25,286 nt of DNA, taken from positions 1 to 25,286 of the forward strand of contig CADBQL010000019.1 of the NCBI GenBank assembly GCA_902796815.1. The letters are read 5' to 3'. The position numbers were made by a program, and so were the translations under genes. Below, piece after piece: positions 6,001 through 14,635 of the stretch. The notes under the pieces are model-generated. The model ran no database searches. It was given only the letters and a program-made list of their open reading frames with translations, and was not told the origin of the DNA. This stretch comes from an uncultured Coriobacteriaceae bacterium. Lineage in GTDB: Bacteria > Actinomycetota > Coriobacteriia > Coriobacteriales > Eggerthellaceae. Position 1 is the first letter of the stretch; each line of letters begins with the position of its first letter.

Positions 6001-6161
6001 CTGTGTAATTTTTTGAACTATGTGCGCACTCTCGTCAAAACGTTATGGATGTTTCTCCTCTGGAAAATGACGCATTCAACATAAGAGGAGGTGAAAGGGC
6101 ATTTTTTTTTGCAAAAAGCAAACGGCGCACGTGTGCAACTTTTTTGTTCGAGCAAAATCGG

Positions 6162-6170
6162 TGGTAATCT
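6162..6170 (+). promoter_or_regulatory. possible extended -10 (TGgTAATCT) for NlpC/P60 gene 1
   Basis: An identical TGGTAATCT occurs upstream of the paralog (7692-7700) at a similar distance from the start codon. Confidence 0.45.
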
Positions 6171-6208
6171 TTGAGGGCACCCAAAGCAGGAATTGGAGGG
6201 ATAATTCA

Positions 6209-7426
6209 ATGAATTACTCACTCGGAAGAAGCCGCAGCGGGCAGTTCGTAGCTCTAATCGTAGCAACAATCGTAGCAAGCGCGATTCTGTTTATCGCAAC
6301 TCCGGCATATGCAGTCACTGCGGCGGAAAAAGAAGCAGAAGCCCAAGAAGCTCTGAATCAGCTGTACGCTCTGCAGGACACACTCGAACAAAAATCAGCT
6401 GAGTACTACCAATCTTTGGCCGAATACCAGGATGCCGTGACATTGCGCGATGCTGCGCAAGAGCGCATCGATGCGATTTCCGGCGAAATCACAGAGATTC
6501 AGGGCAGGTTGGGATCGCGTGCGCGTGAAATGTATCGCAACGGTGCCACGTCGTTTATCGACTTGCTGTTTGGTGCCACGTCGTTTGACGAGTTCACTCA
6601 GAATTGGGATATCCTGAATCGCCTGAATAGCAACGATGCCGAGCTTTCGACTAAGGCCAAGGCATTGCGCAACGAAACTAAGCGCAAGAAGACCGAGCTC
6701 ACGAAGCAGGCTGGCATTGCTGAGAAGAAATCGGCAAATGCACAGCGTGCCTTCAAAGAGTCGCAGGAGCTCGTTGCGCAGATGCAAGAGACCTACAATG
6801 GTCTTAGCGCAGAAGCGCGCAGGCTGTACGAAGAAGAGCAAGCCGCTGCCGCTGCGGCTGCCGCTGCAGCCGCCGCTGCCGCTGCTCAAGCGCAAGCCGA
6901 GGCTGAAGCCGCCGCTGCTGCCGAATACGACGGGGATGACGGATCCGGCGCTTATGAGGATGAGGAAACGGGCGAGACGTACTATTATTCCGATGGCGAC
7001 AACAACTATGTTGCCACGGAAGGTGCAGTCGAAAACGATGACGGCACGGTAACCGACATCAACACGGGTGAAACGTATGATTCGCCTACGGAATACACGG
7101 CATCGACCGGAAATGAAATCGTTGATCGCGCGGCATCTATGCTTGGTAGTGCCTACCAATACGGTGGCACGGGCGCTGACGGTACGTTCGACTGCTCGGG
7201 TCTTGTTGGCTATGCTCTGACCGGCACGACCGAGCGTATCGGTAACACCACCTCGTTCATGAGCGACTATAATCAGGTGAGCGATCCTCAGCCAGGTGAC
7301 ATTGCAGTGAACGCAGGCCATACCGGCATCTACATCGGCAACGGCCAGATGATTCACGCAGGCGATGAGTCTACGGGCGTCATTGTGGGCGACGTGCAAG
7401 ACGGTATGATTTACGTTCGTCCATAG
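6209..7426 (+). CDS. secreted coiled-coil + NlpC/P60 (C40) peptidoglycan endopeptidase, paralog 1 (405 aa)
   Basis: GGAGG RBS before ATG 6209; signal peptide ending AYA; PcsB/CwlO-like coiled coil; poly-Ala linker; FDCSGLV (Cys) and GHTGIYIGNGQMIHA (His). Confidence 0.92.
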   Translation: MNYSLGRSRSGQFVALIVATIVASAILFIATPAYAVTAAEKEAEAQEALNQLYALQDTLEQKSAEYYQSLAEYQDAVTLRDAAQERIDAISGEITEIQGRLGSRAREMYRNGATSFIDLLFGATSFDEFTQNWDILNRLNSNDAELSTKAKALRNETKRKKTELTKQAGIAEKKSANAQRAFKESQELVAQMQETYNGLSAEARRLYEEEQAAAAAAAAAAAAAAAQAQAEAEAAAAAEYDGDDGSGAYEDEETGETYYYSDGDNNYVATEGAVENDDGTVTDINTGETYDSPTEYTASTGNEIVDRAASMLGSAYQYGGTGADGTFDCSGLVGYALTGTTERIGNTTSFMSDYNQVSDPQPGDIAVNAGHTGIYIGNGQMIHAGDESTGVIVGDVQDGMIYVRP

Positions 7427-7736: not shown

Positions 7737-9134
7737 ATGATGCAGCATACGACGCAAGATGAATCGCACTTCTTGGCAACAACAAGCAGGGTTTTATTCA
7801 TGCTTGCGGTTGCCGTTGGTGTCGCTTTGTTCGTATCGCCCCATTCAGCCCATGCAGTGACAGCAGCCGAGAAGCAAGCCGAAGCCGAAGCGGCTTATGC
7901 AAATCTCATGGCCATGCAGGAGTCTCTCGACCGCCTTTCGGCACAGTACGGCGAGGCTCTTTCCGCCCAAGAGGAAGCCGAGAAGAAGCATAAGGCCGCC
8001 GAAGTGAGGATCGGCGAGATTACCGAAGAGATAGAATCGGTTCAGTCGAGCCTGAATGAGCATGCGCGCGAAATGTATCGTTCTGGTAGCGTGAAGTTTT
8101 TGGAAATAGTTCTGGGCGCATCCTCGTTTGAGGAGTTTGCCACAAGCTTGGACATGGCAAATCGCGTAAATCAAAACGAAGCTGCACTGGTAGACGAGCA
8201 TCGAGCTCTGAAAGAGGAAGCCGTAGAGCAAGAGGCTATCCTACAAGAGCAAGCAGAAGTTGCTGCTAAGAAATCGGAAGAGGCAGCAGCGGCTGAACAG
8301 CAGGCGCAGGCGACCGTCGCCGAAATGGATGCGGTGTACCAGAGCCTGAGCGCCGAGGCTGCGGAATTGCTCGAAGAAGAGCGCAAGGCCCGTGAGGCGG
8401 AAGAAGCCGCGCGTGCTGCCGCTGTGCTCGAGGCGGCCAGGATTGCGGCAGAGCAAGAGGAAGCTGCGCGTGCGGCACAAGAAGCTGCCGAAGCGGAGGC
8501 GGAAGAAGAAGCTGAAGAGGACGAGGCTGCAGAGGATGAGTCCGACGAGTCCGACGAGTCCGATGGCGAGAACTATGTCGACGAGGATGGCGACGGCTAC
8601 GATGACGAGACCGGCGAAGAAATCAGCGAAGAAGAGGCAGAAGAAGGCGAGTCCGACGGGGAATCTGATGACGAATCATCGGACGAGAATGCGGATGACG
8701 AAGAATCCACCGATGACGAGGGTGACAAAGAATCCACCGACGAAGCGGGCGACGAAGAAGCTACTTCTGAAGAGCCTTCCGATGATGGTGGCAACGCAGC
8801 ACCTGCCTACGAGGGCGGAAGCGATACTGTAAGCCGTGCCCAGGCATGTCTGAGTGCCCCATATGTATGGGGAGGTGTCGGTCCTGAAGGATACGACTGC
8901 TCAGGACTGGTGAGTTACTGCCTGACCGGGAGCCACACGCGTCTCGGCACGACGGTAACGTTCATGGGATGGCCGCAGGTTGCGGATCCTCAGCCAGGTG
9001 ATATTGCCGTGAACTGGGGACATACCGGCGTCTATATCGGTGGCGGCCAGATGATTCATGCAGCAACTTATGGCGTAGGCGTTATCACCGGGCCAGTTCA
9101 GGACGGTATGATTTTCGTTCGTTATCCCGGTTAG
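7737..9134 (+). CDS. secreted coiled-coil + NlpC/P60 endopeptidase, paralog 2, with very acidic linker (465 aa)
   Basis: GGAGG RBS; signal peptide ending AHA then VTAAEK as in paralog 1; YDCSGLV and GHTGVYIGGGQMIHA; D/E-rich linker of ~100 aa. Confidence 0.92.
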   Translation: MMQHTTQDESHFLATTSRVLFMLAVAVGVALFVSPHSAHAVTAAEKQAEAEAAYANLMAMQESLDRLSAQYGEALSAQEEAEKKHKAAEVRIGEITEEIESVQSSLNEHAREMYRSGSVKFLEIVLGASSFEEFATSLDMANRVNQNEAALVDEHRALKEEAVEQEAILQEQAEVAAKKSEEAAAAEQQAQATVAEMDAVYQSLSAEAAELLEEERKAREAEEAARAAAVLEAARIAAEQEEAARAAQEAAEAEAEEEAEEDEAAEDESDESDESDGENYVDEDGDGYDDETGEEISEEEAEEGESDGESDDESSDENADDEESTDDEGDKESTDEAGDEEATSEEPSDDGGNAAPAYEGGSDTVSRAQACLSAPYVWGGVGPEGYDCSGLVSYCLTGSHTRLGTTVTFMGWPQVADPQPGDIAVNWGHTGVYIGGGQMIHAATYGVGVITGPVQDGMIFVRYPG

Positions 9135-10567: not shown

Positions 10568-11038
10568 AATGCCTCCAGACCGATCAAGGTGAGATTCGCT
10601 TGCGGGGTATTGCCGTCGAGCCGAGATGCGGTGTGCATGCATGTACCGCGCAACTAAGTGCAGTCTCATGTGCGCTCTGGCGATCGTTCAATATCCGCGT
10701 TATTTTATTGTATCCTCCCTGTCGTCAAACCTTGCGCGCAGCGAGCCAAAGCACATAATGAGTTGTTTTTCGGGTTCGTTTATGTTCATGTGGGATTTGT
10801 CGGCTTGTTTCCCAGGGCAACAGGGATTGGCTGTAGATTGCAGGTTTATGCAATGCGTTATTCGTTGGGTGTCGCTTAAGGGCTGGCAACGTTGCCAGCA
10901 TTATGCTTTTGCACGAGCTGCCAGCCTCATGCTTTCACGCGAATGTCGCTTGTGAGTTGACCTAATCCGCATCAGTCGCGTTACTATGATTACGTCGTTG
11001 GAAGAGCTTCGGCGACCCGTAAGCAAAAGGAGGGTTAC

Positions 11039-12337
11039 GTGCTGTATACGCCATTGACCAAACGAGCACTCACCATTTGTTTTGAGGCACACAAAAACCA
11101 GAAGGACAAATCTGATGCGCCTTATGTGTTTCATCCGTTTCATCTCGCAGAACAGATGCAAACGGAATCCGAGGTGTGCGTAGCGCTGCTCCACGACGTC
11201 GTAGAAGACACGCAGCTTACTGGAGACGACTTGCGTGCAGCGGGAATGCCCGACGACATCGTTGAAGCGGTAGAGCTGCTCACGCACGATGCGTCAGAGC
11301 CGTATATGGATTACGTGGCTCGTATTGCGCAAAACCCGCTTGCTGCCCGCGTGAAAAGGGCCGATCTAACGCATAATTCGGATTTGAGTCGCTTCGATGG
11401 GGAGCCCAGCGAGCGAGACATGGAACGTCGCGAAAAGTATCTGAAAGCGATTTCTCTGCTCAATCGTGCGTGCGATCGTACGCGGTGCAATTCGGGTAGC
11501 CTTTGTGCAGACGACTCGCTTCCCATGTTCGGTGCCATCGTGGGTGACATCGTAGGTAGCGTTTACGAGTGGGACAACATCAAAACGATGGAGTTCCCGC
11601 TGTTTTCGGACGGGTCGACATTCACCGACGATTCGGTCATGACCGTCGCGGTTGCGCAAGCCCTTTTGGAGGTGGCAGGCTCTGGTGAATCGAGGAGGTC
11701 GATTAGTCGGCCAAAGCTGCGTGAGACGGTCGTGTCATCCATGCAAGACCTGGGGCGTCGCTATCCTCGTGCAGGTTATGGCGGATCGTTCAGGAAATGG
11801 CTGCGCACGCACCATCCAACGCCTTACAACAGCTGGGGAAACGGTTCTGCGATGCGCGTCTCGCCCGTTGCTTGGGCAGCGAACAGCGTCGAGGAGGCCG
11901 AGTTTCTAGCTGCGGCGAGTGCTGAGGTGACGCACAATCATCCCGAAGGCATCAAGGGCGCGCAAGCTGCCGCCGCATGCATCTTCCTCGCTCGTATGGG
12001 GAGCTCGAATGACGAGATACGCCATTATGTTGAGGTTAACCATGGGTATGACCTGGGATTTACTCTTGACGATATCCGCGAAGAGTACAAGTTCGACGTC
12101 AGCTGCCAGGGGAGCGTGCCTCATGCCATCGTTGCCTTTTTGGAGAGCTCGGATTTCGAAGATGCCGTGCGTCGCGCTGTCTCCATCGGGGGCGATAGCG
12201 ACACGATTGCCGCAATCACCGGTGGTATCGCGCAAGCGCGCTATGGTGTGCCCGGCCGTATTGCCTTCGATGCCCGTCGCCGCCTACCCGAGGATTTCCT
12301 GACGACAATCGATGCGTTCTGCGAGTGCTTTTCGTAA
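11039..12337 (+). CDS. fusion of HD-domain hydrolase (RelA/SpoT-HD, Mesh1/SAH-like) and ADP-ribosylglycohydrolase (DraG/ARH) (432 aa)
   Basis: AGGAGG RBS, GTG start. N-terminal AH.Q.DK..PYVFHP...LLHDVVEDT; C-terminal GAIVGDIVGS, TDDS, GNGSAMR, THNHPEG, GGDSDTIAAITG. Confidence 0.88.
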   Translation: MLYTPLTKRALTICFEAHKNQKDKSDAPYVFHPFHLAEQMQTESEVCVALLHDVVEDTQLTGDDLRAAGMPDDIVEAVELLTHDASEPYMDYVARIAQNPLAARVKRADLTHNSDLSRFDGEPSERDMERREKYLKAISLLNRACDRTRCNSGSLCADDSLPMFGAIVGDIVGSVYEWDNIKTMEFPLFSDGSTFTDDSVMTVAVAQALLEVAGSGESRRSISRPKLRETVVSSMQDLGRRYPRAGYGGSFRKWLRTHHPTPYNSWGNGSAMRVSPVAWAANSVEEAEFLAAASAEVTHNHPEGIKGAQAAAACIFLARMGSSNDEIRHYVEVNHGYDLGFTLDDIREEYKFDVSCQGSVPHAIVAFLESSDFEDAVRRAVSIGGDSDTIAAITGGIAQARYGVPGRIAFDARRRLPEDFLTTIDAFCECFS

Positions 12338-13312: not shown

Positions 13313-14512
13313 TTACGACCCAATCCCGACCCCGATCCCGATTACCTGTCCAAAGTCAACCTTGTTTCTTCGGCGTTTCATCCTTGCGCTTCGGATGGCA
13401 GCATCCCCTGGGAGCAGTGACCAGATTAGTTCTTGTCGCATTTCTGTTAGCGTATGGTTTGCAATGGAGTGGCGTTGCGGCGAGAGGTCCCGATTGGCGA
13501 ACTGCTCGATAGCCGAAATCGCTTGGAGCATGACATTGTCGAGCGCACCGTATTCATACAGGTCTTCCTTGGTTACAGGGAAGATGATATACCCGTTTGC
13601 GGCGAGCTCGCGATTTCTGCGGATATCGTCTATTGCCTTGTTGCGCACTCGATGAACAGCATTTTTGAGAACGTCTTGGGCGACTTGGCTTTCGGGGTTC
13701 CGGCCAAGCTCAATTGCGGTGTCGGCGATAGACTCAAGGTCGAGATGACCGCCGCCATCGTAGTTGAAACCGATGTTAGTATCGGCAAGGAGTATGTCGG
13801 GGACGCGCGATTCCACGTGTGTTGTGCGTTTTAGTTCAGCGGGAGTGTATACGCGTTTGTTCATCAGGCAGGGAGAAAGCTCGTAGCCCAGCTGATGCAA
13901 AGGGAGATTTGCGAGCGCGGCAATGACCGATTCGGTTGGTGACCATGCGTTGTCCGCAATAAACTCGAGCGCCATGCGTGCAGACTTAGCCCCTCGGAGC
14001 CAATGCGTCTGATCGAGGAAAGCCCTGATGCGTTCAACGGTTGTGGCGGGGGCGATATCGAATGTGGCGTTGCCGCATCTGGGATCGGCCGCATCGCGCG
14101 AATACTCTCCGCAGAGCTCGAAACCGAGCAACAATAGCTCGGTGAGCGGAAGGACGTTTGCCATTTCTACAAACATGAGCTCAGGACTGCTCATAGCAAT
14201 TCCGTCATAAAGCTCAATAAACGCTCCTGCAGGGAGGCTTCTTTCATGCCCATAGACAGTGCTCTGAGCGCATTTGGAACGCAAACGGTCGCTGGCCCTG
14301 CTGACCGCGATATGTACATTGCGCTCCTCGAACGATGCGCCTGACACTTCGCTCACGATACGTTGCCACCTTTTAAGCGTCATGCGCTTAAAAGGACTCG
14401 AATCGGGCGGAACGAGGCTGCATCTACGGTGCCTGCGCATCTTGTGTTTGCTTTTGCAGCGTAAGGCACGCGTGATGAATAGCGCGGTTTGTTTTCCAAA
14501 AGTTACATTCAT
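13313..14512 (-). CDS. AbiEi-like/DUF559 (PD-(D/E)XK-fold) hypothetical protein of the type expanded in Actinobacteria (399 aa)
   Basis: SPELMFVEMA, RGAKSARMALEF...SPTES, RVPDILL....IGFNYDG..H and DIRRNRELAANGYIIFPVT match the pattern I recall for this family; start assumed at MNVTFGKQTAL. Confidence 0.65.
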   Translation of the reverse strand: MNVTFGKQTALFITRALRCKSKHKMRRHRRCSLVPPDSSPFKRMTLKRWQRIVSEVSGASFEERNVHIAVSRASDRLRSKCAQSTVYGHERSLPAGAFIELYDGIAMSSPELMFVEMANVLPLTELLLLGFELCGEYSRDAADPRCGNATFDIAPATTVERIRAFLDQTHWLRGAKSARMALEFIADNAWSPTESVIAALANLPLHQLGYELSPCLMNKRVYTPAELKRTTHVESRVPDILLADTNIGFNYDGGGHLDLESIADTAIELGRNPESQVAQDVLKNAVHRVRNKAIDDIRRNRELAANGYIIFPVTKEDLYEYGALDNVMLQAISAIEQFANRDLSPQRHSIANHTLTEMRQELIWSLLPGDAAIRSARMKRRRNKVDFGQVIGIGVGIGS

Positions 14513-14635
14513 ATTTAAATAATACAATTATTTAGATTCATACTTTGATGTAATTACAAATGCTATCCATTCTCCTTCGTATATTCATAATCCTTGCAGT
14601 TTCATTTTGTGTCGCTTTCCAAAATGTTGCAGCGA

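Follow-up and report, generated by a model that had tools for sequence, protein, structure and literature searches.

The fusion gene and its two catalytic domains

The stretch of DNA analyzed here, called the window in what follows, comprises the 25,286 nt of contig CADBQL010000019.1 from an uncultured Coriobacteriaceae bacterium of the rumen (family Eggerthellaceae). At 11039..12337 on the forward strand (stop codon included), flanked by engB/ysxC on the reverse strand and by a lipoprotein gene, it carries a gene which, by the open reading frame (ORF) list and its translation, encodes a 432-aa protein in which an HD hydrolase, predicted to be of the Aph1 type, is fused to an ADP-ribosylhydrolase (ARH). 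An earlier note on this DNA, made from the sequence alone, had described one polypeptide in which each domain keeps its catalytic motifs; this is borne out, and all the motifs it named are present. The start codon in the sequence is GTG at 11039, 5 nt after a ribosome-binding site (RBS), AAAGGAGGG, read from the sequence at 11026..11034 (+). Since the N-terminus MLYT.LTK is kept in all 13 aligned fused homologues, we consider the start at 11039 to be right. The promoter of the gene must lie within the divergent intergenic region (10670..11025) between it and engB/ysxC (reverse strand; recognized by Pfam MMR_HSR1), and a promoter scan of this region found no sigma-70-like site.

Residues 1-141 (11039..11461, +) form the predicted Aph1-family (p)ppApp 3'-pyrophosphohydrolase domain, assigned by its match to PDB entry 7SMG, which is Aph1. 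Aph1 of Bacteroides caccae has a single enzymatic function, the hydrolysis of (p)ppApp (Ahmad et al. 2023, PNAS; PMC10083569), and the residues D24, R96, D116, R119, K133 and Y134 separate its family from (p)ppGpp hydrolases (PMC10083569, section 9), D24R together with R119A making Aph1 accept ppGpp (PMC10083569). With phmmer, residues 5-141 matched 7SMG at E 2.8e-27, and Foldseek of the modelled domain against 7SMG gave TMt 0.93, a root-mean-square deviation of 1.5 A and 38% identity. The domain also matched phrog_990 (E 4e-45). The motifs PYVFHP (residues 28-33) and LLHDVVED (50-57) are in place, the latter with the HD motif H52-D53 (11192-11197, +), and the catalytic and metal-binding residues H18, H52-D53, E56-D57 and D109 are invariant or nearly so in the 13 fusions. 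As seen in the alignment to 7SMG and its column table, the six-residue signature is complete, with D23 (11105-11107, +), R95, D115, R118 (11390-11392, +), K133 and Y134 (11435-11440, +), and the guanine-contacting Arg, equivalent to R43 of TtRel, is replaced by Asp at position 23. Because all six signature residues are present, we predict that the HD domain belongs to the Aph1 family and is (p)ppApp-specific. The earlier note had labelled it Mesh1/SAH-like (small alarmone hydrolase-like). Mesh1-type hydrolases share with it the HD superfamily and the catalytic core; however, the additional helices seen in (p)ppGpp hydrolases are missing from our domain, and its matches in PDB to Mesh1 and Rel hydrolase domains were at E 1e-3 to 1e-8 only, the match to Aph1 being about 20 orders of magnitude better. 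Thus the 7SMG match, the structure and the residues D23, R118, K133 and Y134 replace that label by Aph1 family, and hydrolysis of ppGpp or NADPH is therefore not expected.

Residues 163-432 (11525..12334, +) form a short ARH3/BAH-like ADP-ribosylhydrolase domain of about 270 aa, assigned by Pfam and by structure. Pfam PF03747 (ADP_ribosyl_GH) was matched at residues 163-404 with E 8.5e-39 and 134.4 bits against a cut-off of 26.2. In the architecture check proposed in the earlier note this family thus stood above the cut-off, and HD_4, at residues 10-79 (E 6e-4), was found only below the Pfam threshold. The domain further matched phrog_6572 (E 6e-53), and its structural neighbours in Foldseek searches with the model were ARH3, MJ1187 and Tri1, ARH3 being the nearest solved ARH. 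Alignment to the ARH3 motifs placed the catalytic Glu at E177 (11567-11569, +) and the metal-binding residues at T196-D197-D198 (11624-11632, +) and G384-G385-D386-S387-D388-T389 (12188-12205, +); we take the matching sites of ARH3 to be E41 for the catalytic residue and T76-D77-D78 and D314-D316-T317 for the metal ligands. The sequence further contains GD (169-170), GNGSAMR (267-273) and VTHNHPEG (297-304) on the same strand, with TDD and GGDSDT at 196-198 and 384-389. E177, TDD, VTHNHPEG and GGDSDT are invariant in the 13 fusions, save that one of them has lost S387. As neither the metal ligands nor the catalytic residue are missing, the domain is predicted to be a binuclear-metal ADP-ribosylhydrolase. 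ARH3 also hydrolyses O-acetyl-ADP-ribose.

The two domains are joined by the linker NRACDRTRCNSGSLCADDSLP, residues 142-162 (11462..11524, +), delimited by the alignment and predicted to be flexible. The short Cys-containing linker of the earlier note is real, in frame and holds three Cys, but it is not conserved, as both length and sequence vary among the 13 fusions and most of them have about 8 unrelated residues with no Cys. In the AlphaFold2 model, which was built from an alignment of 84 sequences (three annotated phage rows left out) and has a mean pLDDT of 93.6, low confidence is confined to the linker (about 150-160); its block has pLDDT 51-67, and residues 154-157 fall below 50. The Cys-containing linker is lineage-specific and probably serves only as a tether. 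We also considered a Cys-rich metal or redox element, which is ruled out by the lack of conservation, the Cys-free linkers of about 8 residues and the low pLDDT.

We regard it as hardly credible that two neighbouring genes only seem fused here through a mistake of sequencing or assembly within the linker. Such an artefact would fit the fact that most relatives in the family have the two domains as separate genes, which the earlier note had named as part of a refutation, and that a 276-aa ARH-only member is annotated by NCBI within a 90%-identity cluster of fusions. Against it, Logan contigs with zero differences bridge the domain junction in three independent runs, from at least two studies: one from bovine DNA (X1) spans 11232-11959, one from sheep DNA of a separate study (X4) spans 11373-11586 and one from a bovine metatranscriptome (X17) spans 11315-11561. 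No indels across the junction were reported in this comparison, and the stop or frameshift in the linker that had been suggested as something to look for was absent from these contigs. The 432-aa ORF, identical or 99% identical, is also present on several other contigs, and more than 13 homologue clusters hold a single open frame with differing linker lengths. The internal Met at 11525 (M163) has, as previously claimed, no purine-rich RBS upstream, and the Clostridial fusions carry Ile in its place. An assembly chimera or frameshift is thus ruled out by the zero-difference contigs over the junction together with the many in-frame homologues. The RNA contig of X17 is compatible with expression of the fusion gene and is not proof of it. 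Apart from the junction, we noticed at 11920-11970 of the window a stretch of about 40 nt which was matched alone by many unrelated contigs at high depth in all four runs; it encodes the conserved THNHPEGIKGAQA motif of other organisms' ARH genes and is not a repeat or mobile element.

Distribution of the fusion and genomic setting of its relatives

A homologue search over 5.8 billion protein clusters recovered full-length fusions of 418-441 aa in about 17 clusters. Those of the Coriobacteriia type (P0001-P0009) are 65-99% identical to the protein studied here, one cluster member being named Eggerthellaceae, and those of the Clostridia type (P0014-P0018) are 51-52% identical. Far commoner than the fusions are stand-alone Aph proteins (about 140 aa, 55-65% identical) and stand-alone ARHs (about 260 aa, up to 68% identical). 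In the ARH tree and in the Aph tree alike, P0001 and P0003-P0009 fall in one clade and P0014-P0018 in another, the separation being starred in both, and each fusion clade is surrounded by unfused genes of its own phylum. Counted over the starred branches, the fused state must have changed at least 2-3 times. Judging from the trees, at least two separate fusion events, one in Coriobacteriia and one in Clostridia, are likely; they are not proven, because a change of state may be a gain or a loss.

In the 50%-identity library we found a third, more distant Aph-ARH fusion (P0178), and also fusions of the reverse order, ARH followed by HD, in at least 5 clusters; the metagenomic proteins P0076, P0154, P0157, P0162, P0166 and P0222 are of this kind. 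Their HD domains have Arg at position 23 (D24 of Aph1) and no equivalent of R118/R119, and from these residues they appear (p)ppGpp/Mesh1-like. The reverse-order proteins are a second, convergent kind of fusion between an ARH and an alarmone hydrolase. As both orders exist, with Aph-type and with guanine-type HD domains, ARH seems to have been joined repeatedly to both kinds of hydrolase. P0076, at least, ends in DUF6508.

Besides the fusion gene and its two neighbours, the wider window encodes PcsB-like hydrolases, RNase H, an EF-G/TetM-like GTPase and one protein without known family. In a related species the gene order is PcsB-PcsB-RNaseH-engB(-)|fusion|rpsB-tsf, and in a second related species the fusion lies a few genes farther from engB. 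Two of the three reference genomes of the same genus show engB(-)|rpsB-tsf without an insert; in the third, nothing matched the fusion in any part of the genome, and the sequence retrieved around the site did not contain rpsB. Present or absent within the genus at one fixed site between engB and rpsB, the gene is thus an accessory insertion. Between species the fusion is 65-66% identical, as against 82-85% for the flanking RNase H and EngB, and its GC content is 0.56 versus 0.54 for the genome. One of the genomes of the same genus (G055, contig C31), which has no Aph-ARH fusion, encodes a 400-aa protein (L114:2464-3666, -) with an Aph-type HD domain 57% identical to ours. The C-terminal ~250 aa of this protein differ from ARH and gave a weak bilin-reductase-like Pfam match (E 2e-4), and a cpYpsA SLOG gene and a radical-SAM gene adjoin it.

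The earlier note saw no cognate toxin nearby, and we agree: the 25,286 nt of the window hold no toxin of the ADP-ribosyltransferase (ART) or RelA_SpoT type. In the genome, which is 70% complete, PF03496 (ADPrib_exo_Tox) had no match, and PF04607 matched only a long Rel and a small alarmone synthetase (SAS) of the RelP/RelQ type, both on other contigs, the SAS matching 6EWZ at E 5e-28. A Sir2 gene lies on another contig. No toxin gene adjoins the fusion, which as an immunity gene would be an orphan.

Among unfused relatives, consecutive genes encode Macro, ARH, Aph and vWA proteins in L011, a Roseburia metagenome-assembled genome (MAG), and ARH, Aph and vWA proteins in L012, an Acutalibacteraceae MAG whose contig starts at the ARH gene; a genome of the same family (G057) has Aph, Macro/HTH, vWA and ARH, and in one further locus a vWA gene and an ARH-SseB fusion are found with Aph three genes further downstream. 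Sampling of Aph loci in gut and rumen Clostridia gave 12 of 76 with a Macro gene as the immediate upstream neighbour of Aph (13 of 80 once L011 is included); 10 of the 12 have, in addition, vWA as the next gene after Aph and so form a Macro-Aph-vWA cassette. Examples of the Macro-Aph cassette are L019:4398-6626, L050:6992-9154 and L056:6950-9202. ARH-vWA fusions and tandem ARHs are common.

The Clostridial fusions have a neighbour of another kind. In L103 (6097-8308) the fusion lies 8 nt downstream of a gene for an HTH-Fic protein. The HTH-Fic protein upstream of Clostridial fusions was matched to SoFic and, at E 1.7e-113, to PDC-S04, a candidate defence family. In L106 (3243-8311) an insertion between Fic and the fusion consists of a MuF C-terminal fragment and two small ORFs; one genome with a Clostridial fusion has the MuF-fragment cassette and a prophage alongside. 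The MuF fragment was considered as the cognate toxin and rejected, as it had no ART or RelA_SpoT match and, by eye, showed a JAB-type HxH...S..D pattern in its C-terminal part, and we take it to be an unrelated cassette that was inserted.

Phages carry relatives of each half. Pneumococcal phage phiARI0746 has the order portal, MuF, a 69-aa protein and an HD_4 protein, the last being 46% identical to the N-terminal domain. The ARHs of a Bacteroides and a Porphyromonas phage are 43-47% identical to the C-terminal domain, and a small ORF follows the ARH in both. In the former, Versailles (43%), the ARH gene is convergent with that of an 869-aa protein which ends in an ADPrib_exo_Tox domain, and in the latter it is convergent with a minor-capsid protein gene. 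Since these layouts match Apk2-Tis1-Aph1 and Bxa-BAH-Bsi, we read the phage relatives of each half, by their position, as putative enzymatic immunity proteins of MuF-type polymorphic toxins.

Comparison with known systems and proposed role

For Aph1 (paired with Apk2) and BAH (paired with Bxa), experiments have established a role as enzymatic immunity proteins (PMC10083569; PMC11699363). Our N-terminal domain shares with Aph1 the HD fold of about 140 aa, the catalytic His and Asp residues and the six specificity residues, and with most members of the family the absence of an adjacent (p)ppApp synthetase. Aph1, however, is a single-domain tetramer encoded beside the MuF toxin Apk2 and the binding immunity protein Tis1, whereas the protein described here carries an ARH in addition. 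BAH, which gives immunity to the prophage MuF toxin Bxa, is an ADP-ribosylhydrolase with the catalytic residue E15 (Alexei et al. 2024, JBC; PMC11699363). It is likewise a short ARH, and E177 is the 15th residue from M163, which agrees with E15 of BAH when the two are compared by residue position; the BAH/Bsi layout is mirrored in the phage loci of the homologues of our C-terminal domain. Unlike BAH, the ARH studied here is fused to Aph and has no Bxa-like toxin or Bsi-like gene nearby, and in contrast to both the Apk2-Tis1-Aph1 and the Bxa-Bsi-BAH modules no toxin gene adjoins it.

A further parallel is offered by the systems centred on an ADP-ribosylglycohydrolase (ARG) described by Iyer et al. 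2022 (Viruses 14:1977; PMC9503650, section 3.8), in which an ARH occurs without an ART, with vWA, SseB, Macro and NADAR partners, and for which an alarmone-type HD phosphatase, fused or adjacent to the ARH, is listed. Nudix-/WYL-HTH regulators and/or vWA, SseB and TY-chaperones are frequent, not universal, in these systems (PMC9503650), and their predicted role is to act against the ADP-ribosylation carried out by viruses (Iyer, Burroughs, Anand, de Souza, Aravind 2022; PMC9503650). The fusion resembles them in that its ARH has no genomically coupled ART or sirtuin, as far as the window and the 70% complete genome go, and in that ARH and phosphatase are linked, in one polypeptide here and as linked genes in L011, L012 and G057. 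It differs in standing alone, without a Nudix/WYL regulator, chaperone or effector, vWA, SseB and Macro-HTH being met only in the clusters of relatives; also, its HD domain is pinned to the Aph1 family, which was defined a year after the paper of Iyer et al., and its lineages are gut Coriobacteriia and Clostridia. Because ARH-HD coupling was described by Iyer et al. 2022, the architecture is not new in kind, and beyond that paper we found no literature on a fusion of a (p)ppApp hydrolase with an ADP-ribosylhydrolase. New here are the Aph1-family HD domain with its (p)ppApp signature, the stand-alone fusion at a core chromosomal site, the parallel reverse-order fusions with guanine-type SAH domains, and the position of Aph directly after Macro, usually with vWA downstream, in many Clostridia; the trees of the two domains also speak for independent fusions in two phyla.

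The reading we favour, to which we would give an even chance, is that the protein is a compact double eraser without a writer, directed against foreign nucleotide-transferring toxins from phages or competitors. Two autonomous hydrolase domains on a flexible tether would make up a bifunctional eraser, in which the HD domain, with a Mn2+-type site of H18/H52/D53/D109, would cleave the 3'-pyrophosphate of (p)ppApp to give ADP or ATP, as Aph1 does, and the ARH domain would strip ADP-ribose from modified macromolecules, as BAH and ARH1/ARH3 do. The likely toxins would be (p)ppApp-synthesising (Apk/Tas1-type) and ADP-ribosylating (Bxa-type) domains, for example on MuF proteins, and the fusion would represent the minimal stand-alone form of the ARG-centric or Macro-HTH/vWA eraser systems without a writer. 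As no enzyme making either modification lies beside the gene, it would act on damage inflicted from outside. A role in conflict is suggested by the patchy occurrence within the genus, the faster divergence than that of the flanking genes and the Fic neighbour of the Clostridial fusions, and likewise by the phage immunity homologues of each domain and the Macro/vWA eraser neighbourhoods. We infer both enzymatic activities, their substrates and the protective role; of the dual antidote put forward in the earlier note, what stands is that homologues of each domain lie beside MuF-type toxins in phage loci, and the antidote function itself is still inferred.

Several observations weigh against this double-eraser reading. 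The gene sits among core genes (PcsB-like, RNase H, EngB), and in the window none of a Nudix/WYL regulator, vWA, SseB, Macro or toxin gene lies beside it; no defence-system model of PADLOC matches it. Only 0.4% of Aph1 homologues are near MuF (PMC10083569), and of about 80 Aph loci no more than 4 include an ARH of the subfamily of our fusion. Fusions are also rare: 150 species genomes from this family yielded none besides, the fused relatives being metagenomic contigs. Finally, given how tightly Aph is linked to cassettes under Macro regulation, an ADP-ribose derivative could be its true substrate in place of (p)ppApp.

It is possible, at a clearly lower level of confidence, that the protein performs housekeeping clean-up, removing the cell's own (p)ppApp by-products of SAS and Rel along with sirtuin-derived O-acetyl-ADP-ribose and stray ADP-ribosyl adducts, so that the fusion merely co-expresses two damage-control enzymes for adenine nucleotides. 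The genome does encode a RelP/RelQ-like SAS, a long Rel and Sir2, and the activity of ARH3, the nearest solved ARH, on O-acetyl-ADP-ribose would suit this role. The core-gene site, the GC content close to that of the genome and the lack of a toxin nearby point the same way, and most Aph1 homologues are found in non-toxin contexts, for example among translation and cell-wall genes (PMC10083569). A housekeeping enzyme, however, would be expected to show broad and stable conservation, and not an engB|rpsB site that is empty in two of three genomes of the genus, nor a faster divergence than its flanking genes, and its relatives would hardly be met in mobile Macro/vWA cassettes, beside a defence-type Fic and in phage toxin loci. 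We hold it similarly unlikely that the two domains serve one coupled pathway, in which ARH frees an ADP-ribose-derived nucleotide and HD removes the 2'- or 3'-(pyro)phosphate from its adenosine, so that there is a single composite substrate, or, in a variant, that both domains repair RNA or tRNA 3' ends which toxins have ADP-ribosylated or pyrophosphorylated. Iyer et al. 2022 had proposed that coupled phosphatases further process the ADP-ribose released by ARG (PMC9503650). Independent fusions in both domain orders fit such a pathway, as do the Aph payload directly after the Macro protein in many loci and the HTH on the Macro protein of G057, which we read as a putative sensor-regulator of the ADP-ribose type; moreover, in ARG-centric systems HD swaps with rhodanese-type, calcineurin-type and HAD phosphatases (PMC9503650), and such interchangeable phosphatases argue for a shared phosphate-bearing product and not for a second unrelated toxin. 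On the other hand, every (p)ppApp-specificity residue is kept and the overlay of the domain with Aph1 deviates by 1.5 A, plain ADP-ribose offers no 3'-pyrophosphate for removal, the guanine-type R43-like residue of the reverse-order fusions misfits an adenosine product, and the long, variable and disordered linker suggests no fixed channel between the sites.

Going further than the double-eraser reading, and in our view rather doubtful, is the idea that the repeated joining of Aph and ARH reveals an unrecognised mechanistic link between (p)ppApp warfare and ADP-ribosylation warfare. It is prompted by the independent fusions, the Macro-Aph(-vWA) cassettes and the parallel fusions of ARH with guanine-type SAH. 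The link might lie in the physiological substrate of Aph, which would be an ADP-ribose-derived or RNA-end species bearing a 3'-(pyro)phosphate, or possibly signals of the ADP-ribose type are sensed and switch on the detoxification of (p)ppApp. Either form, if true, would help to explain the thousands of Aph genes without toxins. Ahmad et al. 2023 left the question why (p)ppApp hydrolases are widespread and almost none lies beside a toxin that makes (p)ppApp, and the fusion with its relatives connects this question with the prediction by Iyer et al. 2022 of ARHs without a writer; whether Macro/vWA eraser cassettes handle (p)ppApp is also raised. As a single small protein the fusion offers a simple test case of one polypeptide against two chemically different nucleotide toxins. 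Should the double-eraser reading be true, bacteria of gut and rumen communities would commonly possess, in eraser immunity of broad spectrum, a compact means of resisting the toxins borne by phages and competitors.

Other genes of the window

Tandem PcsB-like genes, each encoding a coiled coil and an NlpC/P60 domain, occupy 6131-7426 and 7737-9134 (+), and the pair is kept in the related species. The second of them has a long and strongly acidic, Glu/Asp/Ser-rich insert of low complexity ahead of the catalytic domain. Two genes downstream of the fusion, at 13313-14527 (-), a 404-aa protein is encoded which gave no match in Pfam, PADLOC or PHROG. It is a member of a multi-copy family, with a paralogue (L002:2207-3208, +; G000 contig C2) that is 46% identical (E 2e-101) and adjoins the SAS gene.

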